A stretch of DNA of 61,779 nucleotides, counting the filler, from Nitrospinota bacterium (GTDB taxonomy: Bacteria; JAUXIQ01): assembly GCA_030620925.1 (NCBI GenBank). It is 7 parts of 7 records of this genome, joined end to end, with 100 filler letters (N's around TTAATTAATTAA, not from the genome) between each part and the next. Parts side by side here need not be neighbours in the genome. Positions count along the whole stretch, not along the records: positions 39,285 to 50,831 come from JAUXIQ010000025.1; 6 more parts are not named here. One strand, 5' to 3'. Positions within the stretch are counted from its first letter, which is position 1; each line of letters opens with the position of its first letter. The notes under the pieces are model-generated. The model did not search any database and was not told the DNA's origin. It worked only from the letters and a program-made list of their open reading frames with translations. The position numbers and the translations under genes are program-made. Below, one piece after another: positions 2,732 through 55,359 of this stretch.

Positions 2732-2831
2732 NNNNNNNNNNNNNNNNNNNNNNNNNNNNNNNNNNNNNNNNNNNNTTAATTAATTAANNNNNNNNNNNNN
2801 NNNNNNNNNNNNNNNNNNNNNNNNNNNNNNN
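2732..2831. other. Artificial contig linker
   Basis: N44 + TTAATTAATTAA (stops in all six frames) + N44. Confidence 0.98.
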
Positions 2832-6849: not shown

Positions 6850-6949
6850 NNNNNNNNNNNNNNNNNNNNNNNNNNNNNNNNNNNNNNNNNNNNTTAATTA
6901 ATTAANNNNNNNNNNNNNNNNNNNNNNNNNNNNNNNNNNNNNNNNNNNN
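6850..6949. other. Artificial contig linker
   Basis: N44-TTAATTAATTAA-N44. Confidence 0.98.
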
Positions 6950-24304: not shown

Positions 24305-24404
24305 NNNNNNNNNNNNNNNNNNNNNNNNNNNNNNNNNNNNNNNNNNNNTTAATTAATTAANNNNNNNNNNNNNNNNNNNNNNNNNNNNNNNNNNNNNNNN
24401 NNNN
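24305..24404. other. Artificial contig linker
   Basis: N44-TTAATTAATTAA-N44. Confidence 0.98.
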
Positions 24405-31653: not shown

Positions 31654-31753
31654 NNNNNNNNNNNNNNNNNNNNNNNNNNNNNNNNNNNNNNNNNNNNTTA
31701 ATTAATTAANNNNNNNNNNNNNNNNNNNNNNNNNNNNNNNNNNNNNNNNNNNN
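31654..31753. other. Artificial contig linker
   Basis: N44-TTAATTAATTAA-N44. Confidence 0.98.
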
Positions 31754-39184: not shown

Positions 39185-39284
39185 NNNNNNNNNNNNNNNN
39201 NNNNNNNNNNNNNNNNNNNNNNNNNNNNTTAATTAATTAANNNNNNNNNNNNNNNNNNNNNNNNNNNNNNNNNNNNNNNNNNNN
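39185..39284. other. Artificial contig linker
   Basis: N44-TTAATTAATTAA-N44. Confidence 0.98.
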
Positions 39285-45698: not shown

Positions 45699-46193
45699 AT
45701 GGGAGCCAAAAAAATCTTCAGCGTGGACAGCCGGTTGTGCGTAGGGTGCAAGCAGTGCGAGTTGGTCTGCTCGCTGACCAAGACGGGCACTTTCAACCCC
45801 CATAAAGCGCGCATACGCGTCACCAGGAACCAGGTTAAAGGGAATTATGTACCTGGTATCTGTTACCACTGCAAGCAGCCGAAGTGCCAGCAGGCGTGCC
45901 CTGAGGACGCCCTGAAGCGAGACATAGAAACCGGAGCGGTGGTGCTGAACGAGTCGCTGTGCTCGGGCTGCCGCGCCTGCGTGGTGGCATGTCCCTTCGG
46001 CGCCGTCCAGGTAGACCCCGACGGCAATATCCTCAAGTGCGACCTGTGCGGCGGAGACCCCACTTGCGTTAAATACTGCTCCGAGCGGCCGGAGAACAGC
46101 AGCCCGCTAATGGCTAACCCCGAGGGGGCCAAAGCGCTTCAATACGTGGAGCCCCACCAGGTAACATATACCAGGCGCTATGCCCAGCTCTAA
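45699..46193 (+). CDS. 4x[4Fe-4S] electron-transfer subunit (AorA-like)
   Basis: CVGCKQCELVC, CYHC..PKCQQACP, CSGCRACVVACP and KCDLC...CVKYC. Confidence 0.92.
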   Translation: MGAKKIFSVDSRLCVGCKQCELVCSLTKTGTFNPHKARIRVTRNQVKGNYVPGICYHCKQPKCQQACPEDALKRDIETGAVVLNESLCSGCRACVVACPFGAVQVDPDGNILKCDLCGGDPTCVKYCSERPENSSPLMANPEGAKALQYVEPHQVTYTRRYAQL

Positions 46194-46290
46194 AAATACT
46201 TTTACGCATGATATTTCGGATTGCAACCATGATGAAAGAGAAGCATTCATGCTTGCAATCGGATCCAGTGTGGGTAATAAGGAGTAGGCG

Positions 46291-48258
46291 ATGTACGGCT
46301 ACGGCGAGATACTCAGGATAGACTTAAGCTCTGGAGACATAAGCACGGAGCCTATCCCTTCTCAGGTCATCCGCAAATATGTCGGTGGGGAGGGGATAAA
46401 CGACTGGCTCCTGTGGCAGCATTTTACGAAGGTCGATCCTAAAATCGACCCTAAAGGGCCGGACAACGTGCTCATCGCCGGTCTAGGACCGCTGGGAGGC
46501 ACCGCCACCGGTTTGGGCAGCAAGATGAAGTTCACCTTCAAGGGCCCGGCCTGGAACATGTTCGGGGACAGCGTTGCAGGAGGCACTTTTGGTACGGCCA
46601 TGCGTTATGCGGGCTACGACCACATAGTGGTAACCGGCCGGGCGGATAAACCCGTCTACATCTGGATCGATGACGACAAGGTGGAGATACGGGATGCTTC
46701 AGCCCACTGGGGTAAGGGAGTGAAGGAGGCCGTGAAGGGCATCCGCGACGAGCTTGGGGATACGGATATGTCGGTCGCCTGCATAGGACAGGCCGGCGAA
46801 AACCTGGTCTCGTACGCTTCCGTGACAGTCACCGAAGAGCGCTCTGCGGGCCGCACGGGAGCGGGGTGCGTGTTCGGCTCCAAGAACCTGAAGGCCATCG
46901 CCGCCCGGGGCAGCAAGGGCATTTCGGTTTCCGATCCAAAAGGATATTTAGAAGCGACCGATGAGATATATCACCGCCTTAAATCGGATCCCACTCACTG
47001 GGGTTTCAGGAAAAACGGCACGCTCGGGGTGGTGGGCTTTTACGACAGGATCGGCGGCAACGCTTACCGGAATAACCAGTTTTCCATGGTGCCACCGGAA
47101 AAGATCAAGGTAATGCTGGCCCGCTGGTTCGCCGATAACATGAAGACTCACGACTTTGCCTGCTCCACGGGCTGCACTATGGGCTGCTGCCAGATATGCG
47201 AAGTCAAGGGACATGAATCGCCCCTGGCAGAGCGTTACAAGGGTCTGACGGGCGAGGGCCCGGAATACTTTACGGTGGCCACCTTCGGGATGGGATGTGA
47301 TATACCCGACTATGCGGCAATCACCCATTTTCACCATGCCTGCAACGACTACGGCATGGACCTTGGGGAGATAGGAGGCGCGGTGCCCTTCCTCATGGAG
47401 CTATGGGAGAGAGGCATAATTGATGAAGAGGACACCAAACGCTGGTGCGGCGAGCCCATCCGCTTCGAATGGGGTAACGTGGAGGCGGTGGAGAAGACCA
47501 TTCAGTCAGTGGGCCTGCAAAATGATCGTCTGGGAGAGATACTGAAGGACGGTCTGGTCAAAGCGGCCCAGAATATCATGGAAGAGAAAGACGTGCCGGT
47601 GCAACAGTACGTAATCCACGGGAAGGGGGGCGCCACCTTCCACGAGGAGATAAGGTCTTTCCCCATCTGGGCCTTAAACTTCGCCGTGGCCAGCAGGGGT
47701 TGCGACCACCTCAAGGGCCTCAACATGATGGATAAGGGCTTTCGCAAGGATATCTCAAAGGCATGGTTCGGGAGCGAAAAGGCCGGAGAGGGATACACTC
47801 CTGATCTCAAGGGAAAAGCCGCGGCCCGGAGCGAGAACCACACCACGGCTATCAATATCACCGGTGTCTGCGTGTTCCGGACGGCGTTGAATCCGCTCAA
47901 TATAGATTTGGATCTCATGGCTCGCGCCTATACCGCGCTCACAGGAATCGAGCTGAATGGGGAGGAACTTTACCTGGCCGGTGAGCGGACATATAATCTG
48001 GAAAAAGCTTTCAATTCGAGGTTGGGCCTCCGCCGCGAAGACGACACCCTCTGCGACCGCTGGATGAAGGAGCCCATCAAGGAAGGGCCGGGAAAGGGCA
48101 TGAAGGCTGAGGATTGGTTCGATGATCTACTTGATGAGTATTACGAATACCACGGTTGGGATAAAAAGACCTCCCTTCAGACCCGAAAAAAGCTGGAGGC
48201 GCTGGATATGGTTGATGTCCTGGAAGTGCTGGAGAATGAAGGTGCCGCGACGGAGTAA
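46291..48258 (+). CDS. Tungsten-dependent aldehyde:ferredoxin oxidoreductase family protein
   Basis: ILRIDLS, CIGQAGEN, GRTGAGCVFGSKNLKAI, CxxGCxxGC, GPEY and SRGCDH. Confidence 0.93.
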   Translation: MYGYGEILRIDLSSGDISTEPIPSQVIRKYVGGEGINDWLLWQHFTKVDPKIDPKGPDNVLIAGLGPLGGTATGLGSKMKFTFKGPAWNMFGDSVAGGTFGTAMRYAGYDHIVVTGRADKPVYIWIDDDKVEIRDASAHWGKGVKEAVKGIRDELGDTDMSVACIGQAGENLVSYASVTVTEERSAGRTGAGCVFGSKNLKAIAARGSKGISVSDPKGYLEATDEIYHRLKSDPTHWGFRKNGTLGVVGFYDRIGGNAYRNNQFSMVPPEKIKVMLARWFADNMKTHDFACSTGCTMGCCQICEVKGHESPLAERYKGLTGEGPEYFTVATFGMGCDIPDYAAITHFHHACNDYGMDLGEIGGAVPFLMELWERGIIDEEDTKRWCGEPIRFEWGNVEAVEKTIQSVGLQNDRLGEILKDGLVKAAQNIMEEKDVPVQQYVIHGKGGATFHEEIRSFPIWALNFAVASRGCDHLKGLNMMDKGFRKDISKAWFGSEKAGEGYTPDLKGKAAARSENHTTAINITGVCVFRTALNPLNIDLDLMARAYTALTGIELNGEELYLAGERTYNLEKAFNSRLGLRREDDTLCDRWMKEPIKEGPGKGMKAEDWFDDLLDEYYEYHGWDKKTSLQTRKKLEALDMVDVLEVLENEGAATE

Positions 48259-48315
48259 AATCCAACCTTTGTTAAACAAAGCAACTTCCCAAGGCTCACG
48301 TTCAGGAGGTATGAA

Positions 48316-48588
48316 TTGGTAATCAAGGTAAGGTTCGAGGGGCCCATAAAAGACGCTGCGCGGTCCGAAGGGGAGGATATAAAACTCGAGGGTACTAACG
48401 TAGGGCAGCTTATCGGCGCCCTTGCCGACAGGTACGGCCCTCGCTTCAAGGAATTCCTGATCGATGAGGAGACCGGGGGGTACAAAGAGGGGATACTAAT
48501 ACTCTCCGGAGGACGACGAATGGACCTCGACACGGAACTGGAAGAGGGGCAGGAACTGGTCTTCATCCCCGCCATAGCGGGCGGCTAA
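48316..48588 (+). CDS. MoaD/ThiS family sulfur carrier protein
   Basis: Ubiquitin-like size, C-terminal PAIAGG and AGGAGGT SD. Confidence 0.9.
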   Translation: MVIKVRFEGPIKDAARSEGEDIKLEGTNVGQLIGALADRYGPRFKEFLIDEETGGYKEGILILSGGRRMDLDTELEEGQELVFIPAIAGG

Positions 48589-49425: not shown

Positions 49426-50604
49426 ATGGGCAAGAGCTATCAGGAAATGCTTAAGGAGATTAAGGAGCAGATCAAAGAGGTCACCATAGAGCAGGTGAAC
49501 GAGATGCTCAACAACGGTGATCGGGTCGTCCTCCTCGACGTGCGCGAGAAGGACGAATGGCGTGAGGGCTATATAGAGGGGGCCGTAAACGTCACCCGCG
49601 GCATGCTGGAGATGCAGATAGAGCGGTCTCTCACCGATAAAGCCGCCAAAGTTATCTGCTACTGCGCGGGGGGCGTGCGCTCGGCTTTCACGGCCAAAGT
49701 CATGATGGAGTTGGGCTACGAGGACGTGTCTTCCATGGCCGGGGGTTTTAACGCCTGGAAACAGGCGCGTTACAATTTTGTAAAAGACAGGATGCTGAGT
49801 TCTGACCAGTTGAGCCGATACAGCCGCCACTTCATGCTTCCCCAGCTGGGAGAGAAGGGGCAGGGCAAGCTCCTGGACGCTAAGGTGATTATGGTGGGCG
49901 CAGGCGGACTCGGTTCCCCCGCGGGCCTGTACCTGGCCGCTGCGGGAGTTGGCACTATGGGTATTGTCGATTCCGACGTGGTGGACGTCACTAACCTTCA
50001 GCGGCAGGTGCTGCATAAGACGGCCGACGTGGGCAGGCCCAAGACGGAATCGGCCAAAGAGACCATCAACGCCATCAATCCCGACGTCGAAGTAATCACC
50101 TATCAGGAGAAGCTCACATCCGAAAACGTAATGGACATCATTGAGGACTACGACGTGGTGGTTGACGGATGCGACAACTTCCCCACCCGTTATCTGGTAA
50201 ACGACGCCTGCGTCCTGGCCGGCAAACCCAACGTCCACGGCAGTATTTTCCAATTCGAGGGTCAGGCCACAGTGCTGTCGTCAGGCGAGGGACCCTGTTA
50301 CCGCTGCCTCTATCCTGAGCCGCCTCCTCCGGGCATGGTCCCCAGCTGACAGGATGCCGGAGTGCTGGGGGTCTTACCCGGCATAGTGGGCCTCATACAG
50401 GCTACCGAGGCGGTCAAACTCATCCTGGGCGTGGGGAACACGCTGGTGGGCAGGCTCCTGCTGTATGATGCCCTGGACATGAAGTTCAGAGAAGTTCGTT
50501 TAAAGAAGGACGATGGGTGCCCCATCTGCGGCGTAAGCCCCACCATAACTCACCTGATCGACTATGATGAATTCTGCGGCTTGAGCGTAAGCCAGACCAC
50601 TTGA
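49426..50604 (+). CDS. moeB: Rhodanese-MoeB/ThiF fusion adenylyltransferase, predicted selenoprotein (UGA at codon 308 read as Sec), 392 aa
   Basis: ORFs 49426-50349 and 50362-50604 are in the same frame. The junction reads [23 protein letters not shown], where the family has PSC..xGVLGVLPG. Also present: rhodanese YCAGGVRS, RYSRH, GAGGLG, NLQRQ, CYRC and CPIC. Confidence 0.88.
50350..50388 (+). promoter_or_regulatory. Candidate bacterial SECIS element
   Basis: ATGCCGG (50354-50360) pairs with CCGGCAT (50378-50384), with a G-rich apex about 17-21 nt after the UGA. Confidence 0.65.
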
Positions 50605-50688
50605 TTCTGAAACGGAATTCCGGGGGACGTGCCTGATATCAGATGTTGAGGCGTGTCCCCCATTTTTTAATCCGAAGGGGGAACGACC

Positions 50689-50831
50689 ATGATAAAGCGG
50701 GTATTCGCATTCAAGTATGCGGAGGGGCAACCGGTGGACGAGATGGAGGATTGGTACCTGGATCAGCACACCCAGCTTGCCAAGAAGATGCCGGGCATAG
50801 TGCGCTACGTTACCTACAAGGCTATCCCCCA
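50689..50831 (+). CDS. EthD-like (dimeric alpha-beta barrel) protein, 3' truncated
   Basis: WYLDQH..LAKKMPGIVRY pattern and AAGGGGG SD. Confidence 0.65.
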
Positions 50832-50931
50832 NNNNNNNNNNNNNNNNNNNNNNNNNNNNNNNNNNNNNNNNNNNNTTAATTAATTAANNNNNNNNNNNNN
50901 NNNNNNNNNNNNNNNNNNNNNNNNNNNNNNN
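50832..50931. other. Artificial contig linker
   Basis: N44-TTAATTAATTAA-N44. Confidence 0.98.
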
Positions 50932-52292
50932 ACTACAGCCGTCGCCACCAGAATCAGCGCCGCGTATCGCCATCTCCTCCCGAGATCAATCCCCCTTGAT
51001 AACGAAGTTGCCAGGAATATGGCGGTAAAAAAGATGAAGAAGGTCATCAGTTTATAGAACAACAGATAGAAAAAAAGAAAAGCCAGCAGCATATAGAGTA
51101 GCAGCTCTTCAGAGGGGGTGCTCTTTCCCGTTACCGCTCTTTTAAGGTAAACGCCGACGGAGATGGAAGCGGCTATAAGAGGAAGAAAAAAGTCGTTGAG
51201 GAACATGAAAAGTGTGGGGCTGGTGTAAGGGGGGACCCAGTAGTGCCGGGCCTCGAAAGGGAGAAGTGAAGGCGTATCCGGTTTGGAGAGAAAGCGCAGC
51301 CGGGTAAAGAGCGTCTCCCAGGCGTGAGAATAGTAAGCCGTTTCGGGCTTGAGGGCCCATAAAATAGCCGCGGCCGCCGCGAACACCGCAACCGACACAA
51401 GAGGTTGCTTCAGCTTAAGCTGTGTTATGCCAGCCCCCAGGACGGCGTATGTGATTATCATCCCGGTTGACAGGGGGAAAAGGTCGTATTTGAGGGGTGT
51501 ATCCAGAAGCAGGCTGGCCGCCACGTTTGTAATGGCGAATATGGCCAGCAGTTTCACGGCCATGGCCCTTCGGCTGTTATAAAACATCATGAAAACGAAA
51601 AACGTGGTAAGAGTCAGGTAATAAAACCTGTTCACCTTCCATGTTACAAGACAGAGTATCAGGAACAGGGCCGAGAGGAGGGCGAAGCGGTAAAAATGCG
51701 GCGGGTTTTCGTCTGATCCATTTCCCGCTCTCGGGCCGATTCCTTCTTTGCGGCGGTCCATCGCCCGGATCAGATAATAGAGGTGCAGCCCCAGCGGTAG
51801 GAAGGCGATCTGTTCCCGGTAGATTTCGTTACCCAGCGATCTCCGCAAGGAAGGCATCGCCACGGCGAAGAAGACGGCCGATAGCAGGGCTGCACTCCTG
51901 CTTCCTGTGGTGTGCAGAGCTATCAGGTAGATGGGTATTACCGTGAGCAGCCAGAAAAACCTGAGGAAGTGTCTGATTAAAGTTTCAAGCGGGAGACCGG
52001 TGAATGATAATAACCTGTAAGAGTATCCCATCAGGTATTCTTGTGCGATGGTGTCTGTGCGTGTGTTGAAGCCGTTGGGGTGTTCCACGGCGGTGTCTAA
52101 TTGCGGAATGGTTCCTTCCCGGGCGACCATTCGGATATATCGATACCTCTGAGCGGACTCGATGGGGAAGGCGCTGCGGTCGGTATACCCCATGCGATGG
52201 AAGATTTGCGCCCTGACGGCCATGCCGACCACGATTATCAACACCAGGATCAACGCTGAACTAAAGGGGCCGATGATTCTATTCTCTGCCAT
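50932..52292 (-). CDS. Polytopic GT-C fold glycosyltransferase-like protein (DPY19/STT3-like), 3' truncated
   Basis: An N-terminal TM helix, a loop with FPIESAQRYRY...DTAVEHPNG, many further TM helices and YREQIAF. Confidence 0.6.
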
Positions 52293-54892: not shown

Positions 54893-55359
54893 TCAGCCGC
54901 CGTAACTGTGACCATAGTCGGATTCGGATAGTGGGATACCCTCTCGTATAGAAGCCGCTTCAACTACCTCGCCTACGAAGATGGTGTGATCGCCGGTGTC
55001 ATGTGAGAGAGTTATACGACATTCCAGATAGGCCAGGGCGTCTTCCAGGATCGGGCAGCCGGTAAGACCATCCCTGTAGTTTATCCCCTCAAACTTGGCC
55101 GATTTGGGAATCCCCCGCGCCATAAACCCGTCCACAAGCTCCTTTTGTTTCCTGTCCATTATGTTTATGGCGAAGGCCTCCGATTCCTTTAACATGCCGT
55201 GGGTATACCTTTCCTCTGAAATGCATATCATCACCAGGGGCGGCTGATGCGAAACCTGCGAGACCCAGGTACGGGCATGCCGTTTATCTCATTGCCGCGC
55301 CGGGTGGTCAGCAGGTAGGCCCCGTAGCTCAACCTTTTGAGGGCTTGGCTTCTGTCCAT
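54893..55359 (-). pseudogene. Flavin reductase family protein with a 1-nt frameshift
   Basis: ATG 55359 gives MDRSQALKRLSYGAYLLTTRRGNEINGMP. The homologous continuation TWVSQVSHQPPLVMICIS...GDHTIFVGEV is in another frame, with the break near 55270. Confidence 0.8.

Follow-up and report, generated by a model that had tools for sequence, protein, structure and literature searches.

The window analysed here (the whole 61,779-nucleotide stretch of DNA, filler included, from a Nitrospinota bacterium) carries on its plus strand an ORF of 307 amino acids at 49426-50349 and, in the same frame, a GTG-started ORF at 50362-50604, the two being separated by a single in-frame TGA. When this TGA is read as U, the halves become one frame of 392 residues that closes with a second TGA. 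The features of the gene and of its upstream neighbourhood are collected in Table 1. The hairpin that follows the second stop resembles an intrinsic terminator, with an MFE of -26.4 kcal/mol and a z of -4.26, and 0 of 200 shuffles folded equally well. By folding, such a hairpin is present after the second stop only, not after the internal TGA; it is absent from the list given by a consensus terminator scan.

Table 1. Features of the rhodanese-MoeB gene and of the cluster upstream of it, in window coordinates.
Feature	Position	Strand	Basis or detail
Ferredoxin-like gene	45699-46193	+	Upstream cluster
Tungsten-type aldehyde:ferredoxin oxidoreductase gene	46291-48258	+	Upstream cluster
MoaD/ThiS-like 90-aa protein ending Gly-Gly, candidate substrate carrier	48316..48588	+	Pfam ThiS, E 3.4e-6
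Whole gene, rhodanese-MoeB through one internal TGA	49426..50604	+	392 codons + terminal TGA
Rhodanese domain, residues 21-113	49486..49764	+	Pfam PF00581, E 1.4e-21
Cys80 TGC codon, rhodanese active-site cysteine, CAGGVR loop	49663..49665	+	Sequence
ThiF/MoeB adenylyltransferase domain, residues 132-366, spans TGA	49819..50523	+	Pfam PF00899, E 8.5e-86
First zinc-site CxxC, C291/C294	50296..50307	+	Aligned with MoeB C172/C175, ThiF C169/C172
In-frame TGA, proposed Sec308, E1 crossover loop	50347..50349	+	Alignment to structures; TGA/Cys column
SECIS-like hairpin	50357..50389	+	Fold; conserved in 12 TGA forms, mostly disrupted in 69 Cys forms
Second zinc-site CxxC, C365/C368, 3' of TGA	50518..50529	+	Aligned with second CxxC of MoeB, ThiF
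True stop codon, also TGA	50602..50604	+	Sequence; all 12 TGA forms close 84-93 codons past internal TGA
Intrinsic-terminator-like hairpin, then AUUUUUU, directly after true stop	50622..50668	+	Folding

Read through, the gene encodes an N-terminal rhodanese domain and a ThiF/MoeB domain whose match covers profile positions 1-237 of 238 (Pfam PF00899). Over its full length the protein matches NCBIfam NF006444 (PRK08762, 'molybdopterin-synthase adenylyltransferase MoeB', 387 positions), scoring 566.3 bits against a cut-off of 449, with residues 5-386 on profile positions 3-385 of 387; this architecture is the same as that of 69 related loci with Cys at the position of the TGA. The predicted activity of such a rhodanese-MoeB would be the adenylation and thiocarboxylation of MoaD.

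Residue correspondences were taken from HMMER alignments to the solved structures 1zud, 1zfn, 1jw9 and 6yub, with positions counted from the alignment rows. Residue 308, the residue encoded by the TGA, aligns to E. coli ThiF Cys184 (1zud) and E. coli MoeB Cys187 (1jw9), and also falls on the crossover-loop Cys of C. thermophilum Uba4 (6yub, Cys202), 14 residues past the CxxC of Uba4. The Gly-rich ATP motif, the catalytic Asp and both CxxC zinc pairs all align to MoeB and ThiF, one zinc pair lying on each side of the TGA. The original prediction had described two ORF halves in one frame split by a single TGA, a 392-aa product if that codon is Sec, a TGA at the place of MoeB Cys187 and ThiF Cys184, one CxxC zinc pair to either side and a rhodanese Cys within CAGGVR. 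The sequence and the structure alignments agree with it on each of these points.

Among characterised proteins, E. coli ThiF (1zud, 1zfn) and MoeB (1jw9) belong to the same fold family as the window protein (E 9e-62 and 7e-56) but have no rhodanese domain and receive sulfur from separate sulfurtransferases. Eukaryotic Uba4/MOCS3 (6yub, 6z6s) does combine an E1-like adenylyltransferase with a rhodanese domain; it differs in having Cys rather than Sec and in carrying the rhodanese at the C-terminus, whereas that of the window protein is N-terminal. Against the MoeZ profile NF005902 the window protein scored 439.5 bits, under the cut-off of 647, and matched only in its MoeB part. The N-terminal rhodanese, together with this score, rules out a MoeZ/Uba4/MOCS3 arrangement.

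The TGA column was compared across the 80 top-ranking loci of species-representative genomes. Eleven of them have TGA at this place (L001, L006, L009, L020, L037, L046, L053, L054, L070, L072 and L079), 55 have TGC and 14 have TGT; with the window this gives 12 TGA forms. Since the codon is TGA in 11 of the 80 and Cys in the other 69, a TGA at this Cys site is more than chance. In every TGA form the break consists of a single codon in the Cys column and leaves the frame unchanged, and in all 12 the open frame persists for 84-93 codons past the TGA and keeps the second CxxC. Across the 60 codons after the TGA, the window and L001 share 34 identical codons and differ by 21 synonymous and 5 non-synonymous changes; the 60 codons before the TGA gave 31 identical, 24 synonymous and 5 non-synonymous. 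The frame after the TGA is under purifying selection. The three closest proteins in a collection of 5.8 billion, P0002 (96% identity), P0027 (82%) and P0067 (82%), all stop at ...PPPPGMVPS, which is the same residue.

Lineages sharing 60-83% identity retain the TGA, and its carriers include Nitrospinota, Tectimicrobiota/Entotheonella and some unplaced MAGs. In a maximum-likelihood tree of 81 proteins, one starred set of 14 rows contains all 12 TGA forms, the other two rows being the Cys forms L061 and L064. L001, a Nitrospinota MAG, is the sister of the window with a support of 100. Path lengths inside the 14-row set reach ~1 change per site, indicating that the TGA has been kept over a long divergence. 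A single origin of the TGA forms is possible on this tree.

We also examined the site in Logan contigs from four runs of four studies; these contigs are assembled sequence, not raw reads, they drop rare variants, and one of the runs may be the source of the window. Contigs spanning the TGA were present in every run (X1, 49900-50403; X2, 50167-50419; X3, 50277-50427; X4, 50129-50378), and no difference from the window at the TGA codon is listed in any of the four. The differences that are listed amount to 50319 G>A, 50322 G>T and 50560 G>A, of which the first two are, by the reading frame, synonymous third-position changes. One X4 contig links 50335 to 50449, omitting 113 bases; its side is 26 letters long, and such sides often come from a foreign organism.

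Downstream of the TGA lies a SECIS-like hairpin with an 8-bp upper stem (50362-50369/50377-50384), a 7-nt loop GGUCUUA (50370-50376) and additional lower pairs. With the U of the UGA taken as nucleotide 1, the upper stem joins 16-23 to 31-38, the lower pairs are 11-43 and 13-41, and the 8-bp stem begins 12 nt past the UGA. All eight upper-stem pairs can form in 10 of the 12 TGA forms versus 1 of the 69 Cys forms. Pair 17-37 forms in 100% of the TGA forms versus 3% of the Cys forms because the former encode Ile or Val where the latter encode Leu; apart from Sec in place of Cys, it is this Ile/Val instead of Leu, five codons into the 3' arm of the hairpin, that sets the gene off from the NF006444 proteins. 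Two further pairs each involve two synonymous sites: 18-36 is formed in 83% of TGA forms versus 36% of Cys forms, and 21-33 in 83% versus 35%.

Among the nine distinct TGA-form sequences, 95.6% of cells were paired versus 30-61% in slid registers, pair 18-36 was seen as CG (4), GC (2) and AU (1), and the observed covariation score was reached by 8 of 500 shuffles. Loop nucleotides G25 and U26 are invariant in all 12 TGA forms. Covariation on both sides is seen at one pair only, and seven of these 12 forms are closely related to one another. The need to encode the conserved peptide GVLGVLPG already sets much of the stem. Folded alone, the window hairpin is no stabler than its shuffles, of which 64 in 200 are at least as stable (z -0.42), and Rfam gave no match in the window at gathering thresholds. 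From the aligned sequences, the hairpin matches a SelB-type element in its position and its loop, and it appears to be specific to the TGA forms.

The Sec machinery was examined in five genomes with the TGA form (G001-G005) and in the window. Matches to selA, selB and selD above curated cut-offs were present in 5/5 of these genomes, with selA and selB adjacent, and in three of them the selD gene carries an in-frame TGA of its own. Four have a tRNA-Sec of 97 nt whose anticodon is TCA; in the remaining genome, that of the nearest relative (G001), whose assembly is fragmented and incomplete, the sole tRNA-Sec match over the cut-off is a tRNA-Trp. No tRNA gene was found in the window, nor was selA, selB, selC or selD seen there. 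Because selA is also present in 5/5 Cys-form genomes tested, the Sec trait is common in these lineages and does not alone distinguish TGA from Cys forms. The predicted Sec decoding in the window's organism rests on this machinery in its relatives.

Three of the TGA-form genomes (G003, G004 and G005) have no ThiF-family match above the Pfam cut-off other than the TGA gene. Two of these, G004 and G005, matched on one contig apiece, also encode MoaD-like and MoaE proteins side by side and give six ThiS-family matches per genome, and these MoaD/ThiS-family carriers need an E1-like activator, which argues against a dead gene. G001 has in addition a stand-alone Cys-form MoeB, 70% identical, in a cluster of PLP enzyme, ThiS-like, MoeB and DsrE genes; given this second MoeB, the Sec form may be one of two E1-like enzymes in the lineage of the nearest relative.

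We consider it very probable that 49426-50604 is one whole gene for a 392-residue selenoprotein in which Sec replaces the crossover-loop Cys. The original prediction that the UGA is decoded as Sec draws support from the TGA/Cys column, the hairpin of the TGA forms and the machinery of relatives. Two checks that it had proposed also came out in its favour, namely the presence of the TGA in sequencing data, where the contigs of four runs show no difference, and the alternation of TGA and Cys in homologs with conserved downstream codons (11 TGA versus 69 Cys; 21 synonymous versus 5 non-synonymous changes).

If the UGA instead terminates, the locus would yield two polypeptides, a 307-aa N-terminal part and an 80-aa C-terminal part restarted at the GTG at 50362, which would then assemble. 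A GTG-started ORF does exist at this position, and the 307-aa form is a called gene in public protein sets. However, just two of the 12 TGA forms have GTG at the restart codon, neither GTC (nine forms) nor GTA (one form) being a start codon, and a split enzyme would part the two CxxC halves of one zinc site. It also gives no reason why the break should always be one codon, in the Cys column and with the frame unchanged, and leaves the TGA-form-specific hairpin unexplained, so that we regard it as very unlikely. Reading of the UGA as a standard amino acid (Cys, Trp or Gly), by a near-cognate tRNA or under a reassigned code, would suit the fact that the column elsewhere is Cys and that the tRNA scan and Rfam revealed no Sec machinery in the window. 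Yet TGA terminates 21 of the 54 long stop-to-stop frames in the window, the end of this very gene included, indicating that the codon is not reassigned. This reading also has to contend with a hairpin whose place and loop suit a SelB-type element and with the full set of sel genes in relatives; we judge it highly improbable.

We give almost no credence to a nonsense mutation that has left a pseudogene or a truncated, inactive enzyme. The standard code does give a truncated ORF, and the second, Cys-form MoeB of G001 could cover the function. Such a mutation is nevertheless at odds with a TGA retained in lineages 60-83% identical and found in the contigs of four studies, with the excess of synonymous over non-synonymous changes against L001, and with the genomes in which this is the only ThiF-family gene.

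Reading through the TGA as Sec places the gene in a known family. The Sargasso Sea data of 2005 yielded 11 sequences of a selenoprotein family then new, 'Molybdopterin biosynthesis MoeB protein' (PMC1088965); 19 sequences were listed from GOS in 2008 (PMC2398784), and the family appears in reviews of 2022 (PMC9312934) and 2026 (PMC13188914). As these catalogues describe them, the published members are, like the window gene, COG0476/PF00899 homologues that contain a UGA in frame, have many Cys counterparts and are predicted to carry a bacterial SECIS; the window gene shows the corresponding ThiF/MoeB homology, Sec/Cys pair and SECIS-like hairpin. This column is the obvious candidate for the Sec position of the published proteins, which likely share it together with the N-terminal rhodanese fusion. 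A literature search for a biochemical study of a MoeB selenoprotein found catalogues only. The original prediction had called MoeB selenoproteins rare and biochemically uncharacterised; the latter part stands as far as this search goes, and the family itself is on record, having been catalogued since 2005 (PMC1088965). The window gene is a further member of this catalogued, biochemically unstudied family, and for that reason the finding extends knowledge and overturns none.

Annotators should treat the locus as a single selenoprotein gene rather than as a pseudogene or a pair of genes. Standard gene callers truncate it, and the 307-aa cut form of its closest relatives is already in public protein sets. 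For the biology, the gene would place selenium at the catalytic Cys of an ancestral E1-like enzyme, at a residue whose thioester and acyl-disulfide chemistry is still being worked out in Uba4 and ThiF. Sec and Cys versions both exist in nature, with Cys paralogues even in one and the same lineage, and lend themselves to comparison in working out the role of this residue. MoeB C187 is probably dispensable, in line with a report that it forms no thioester (PMC13139853).

The crossover-loop Cys of Uba4 reacts with the adenylated carrier to give a thioester, after which the rhodanese persulfide generates an acyl disulfide and the thiocarboxylate is released; according to the same reports, only the crossover-loop Cys and the rhodanese Cys are required (PMC7527816, PMC11662940). 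ThiF Cys184 makes an acyl disulfide with ThiS (PMC12596934), and a paper of 2026 denies thioester formation for both ThiF Cys184 and MoeB Cys187 (PMC13139853). By analogy, we propose that Sec308 has the role of Uba4 Cys202 or of ThiF Cys184, opposite Cys80.

In the mechanism that we envisage, the hairpin would direct SelB to the UGA, and the MoeB domain of the resulting protein would adenylate the C-terminal Gly-Gly of a MoaD/ThiS-like sulfur carrier. Sec308 would then attack the adenylate to form a selenoester; because ThiF Cys184 and MoeB Cys187 are reported not to form thioesters, this step may not apply. A persulfide on rhodanese Cys80 would displace Sec308 to give an acyl disulfide, which Sec308 would in turn resolve, so that the thiocarboxylated carrier leaves and a Cys80-Sec308 selenenylsulfide remains, to be reduced later. 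Selenium would be expected to speed the nucleophilic and leaving-group steps, that is, the attack and the resolution. This chemistry is inferred by analogy with Uba4 and ThiF, and the identity of the carrier is likewise an inference.

Taken together, and tentatively, Sec308 and Cys80 might constitute a self-contained Se/S relay running through selenoester, acyl disulfide and selenenylsulfide, by which one polypeptide would thiocarboxylate every sulfur carrier of the cell; it would be the sole E1-like enzyme in some lineages (G003-G005), and both relay residues would be Sec in at least one relative (L009). We regard this joint reading as possible but rather doubtful.

A three-gene cluster lies ~840 bases upstream of the gene on the same strand, beyond an oppositely oriented phosphoribosyltransferase gene. 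Its MoaD/ThiS-like protein scored 45.8 bits against TIGR01687 (moaD_arch), under the cut-off of 49.5. The cluster hints at pterin-cofactor sulfuration; for an activity on MoaD, the MoaD-like neighbour is circumstantial evidence. The adjacency of the MoaD-like neighbour is kept in 0 of the 80 related loci; when 13 neighbouring window proteins were searched against these loci, none was conserved beside the TGA forms (0/11).

To look for further selenoprotein genes, the window was scanned for in-frame TGA junctions, of which 58 were listed. Six of these, hand-picked to lie outside longer ORFs of the other strand or frame, were scanned with Pfam, and no selenoprotein gene was found among the six; one is a flavin-reductase gene with a frameshift, not a selenoprotein.

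Two by-products of the analysis stand out as the most interesting: genomes whose sole E1-like enzyme comes from the TGA gene, and locus L009, which has a second TGA at the column of the rhodanese catalytic Cys, reading U-A-S-G. We found no description of such a two-Sec E1-like enzyme in the literature. The forms listed for rhodanese-type selenoproteins are UxxS, UxxG and CxU (PMC13188914); the U-A-S-G of L009 fits the UxxG form, whereas the window gene has Cys80 (TGC) in its rhodanese domain and the proposed Sec at the MoeB site only.

A locus from a MAG labelled Deltaproteobacteria (L009) contains two in-frame TGAs, at 1454-1456 and 2138-2140. One falls in the MoeB crossover-loop column (the ThiF Cys184/MoeB Cys187 position), and the other occupies the site of the rhodanese catalytic Cys (VVY-TGA-ASGLRS vs CYCAGGVRS in the window), with a predicted hairpin 3' of this rhodanese-site codon. 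Judged from this single locus and its sequence, the L009 product could be a rhodanese-MoeB with two selenocysteines. In another TGA-form locus, L020, the tblastn match (694-2329) is 1636 bases wide vs about 1180 expected for the gene, and past the second CxxC its C-terminal tail is unlike that of the other TGA forms.

For three relatives' genomes (G003, G004 and G005), the TGA-containing rhodanese-MoeB is the sole ThiF-family match over the Pfam cut-off. Despite this single match, G004 and G005 each have a MoaD-MoaE pair as well as six ThiS-family matches. The incomplete assembly of the nearest relative, G001, carries a cluster (L086, contig C350, 421-3039) of genes for four proteins: a cysteine-synthase-like, PLP-dependent enzyme; a ThiS-like protein with AGGV at its C-terminus; a stand-alone MoeB; and one that is DsrE-like. 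In this MoeB the Sec column holds Cys, and its identity to the MoeB domain of the window is 70%. The cluster resembles a pathway of the CysO/CysM type, present in G001 beside the Sec form. One in-frame TGA also lies inside the selD match of each of G001, G002, and G003; if it is read as Sec, SelD would be a selenoprotein in these genomes.

Features in the window and in the genomes of relatives that carry the TGA form
Feature	Sequence	Position	Strand	Remark
Cluster: 4Fe-4S ferredoxin-like protein, aldehyde:ferredoxin oxidoreductase (AFOR_N/AFOR_C), MoaD/ThiS-like protein	window	45699-48588	+	just 5' of Sec gene
Flavin-reductase-like gene, N-terminal piece	window	55231-55359	-	42 aa
Flavin-reductase-like gene, second piece	window	54893-55234	-	113 aa, Flavin_Reduct domain
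N-run places	window	2732-2831, 6850-6949, 24305-24404, 31654-31753, 39185-39284, 50832-50931		
selD match	G001 C25	14433-14876		one in-frame TGA
selD match	G002 C684	3-299		one in-frame TGA
selD match	G003 C9	120631-121554		one in-frame TGA
Only ThiF-family match	G003 C5	74435-75136		Pfam cut-off
Only ThiF-family match	G004 C1	2435706-2436410		Pfam cut-off
Only ThiF-family match	G005 C1	1763923-1764627		Pfam cut-off

The MoaD/ThiS-like protein encoded 5' of the window Sec gene is 90 aa long and has a C-terminal GG. Paired 44-base N runs, separated by 12 bases, occur at six places in the window. The nearest begins 228 bases past the stop of the Sec gene, which is untouched; a small ORF (50689-50883) and the start of a membrane-protein ORF (50880-52292) extend into it.

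On the minus strand, a flavin-reductase-like gene (54893-55359) is split over two frames. Because its two pieces overlap, the sequence suggests a one-base frameshift near 55265-55275. The break, which is not a Sec site, may be an assembly error or real.
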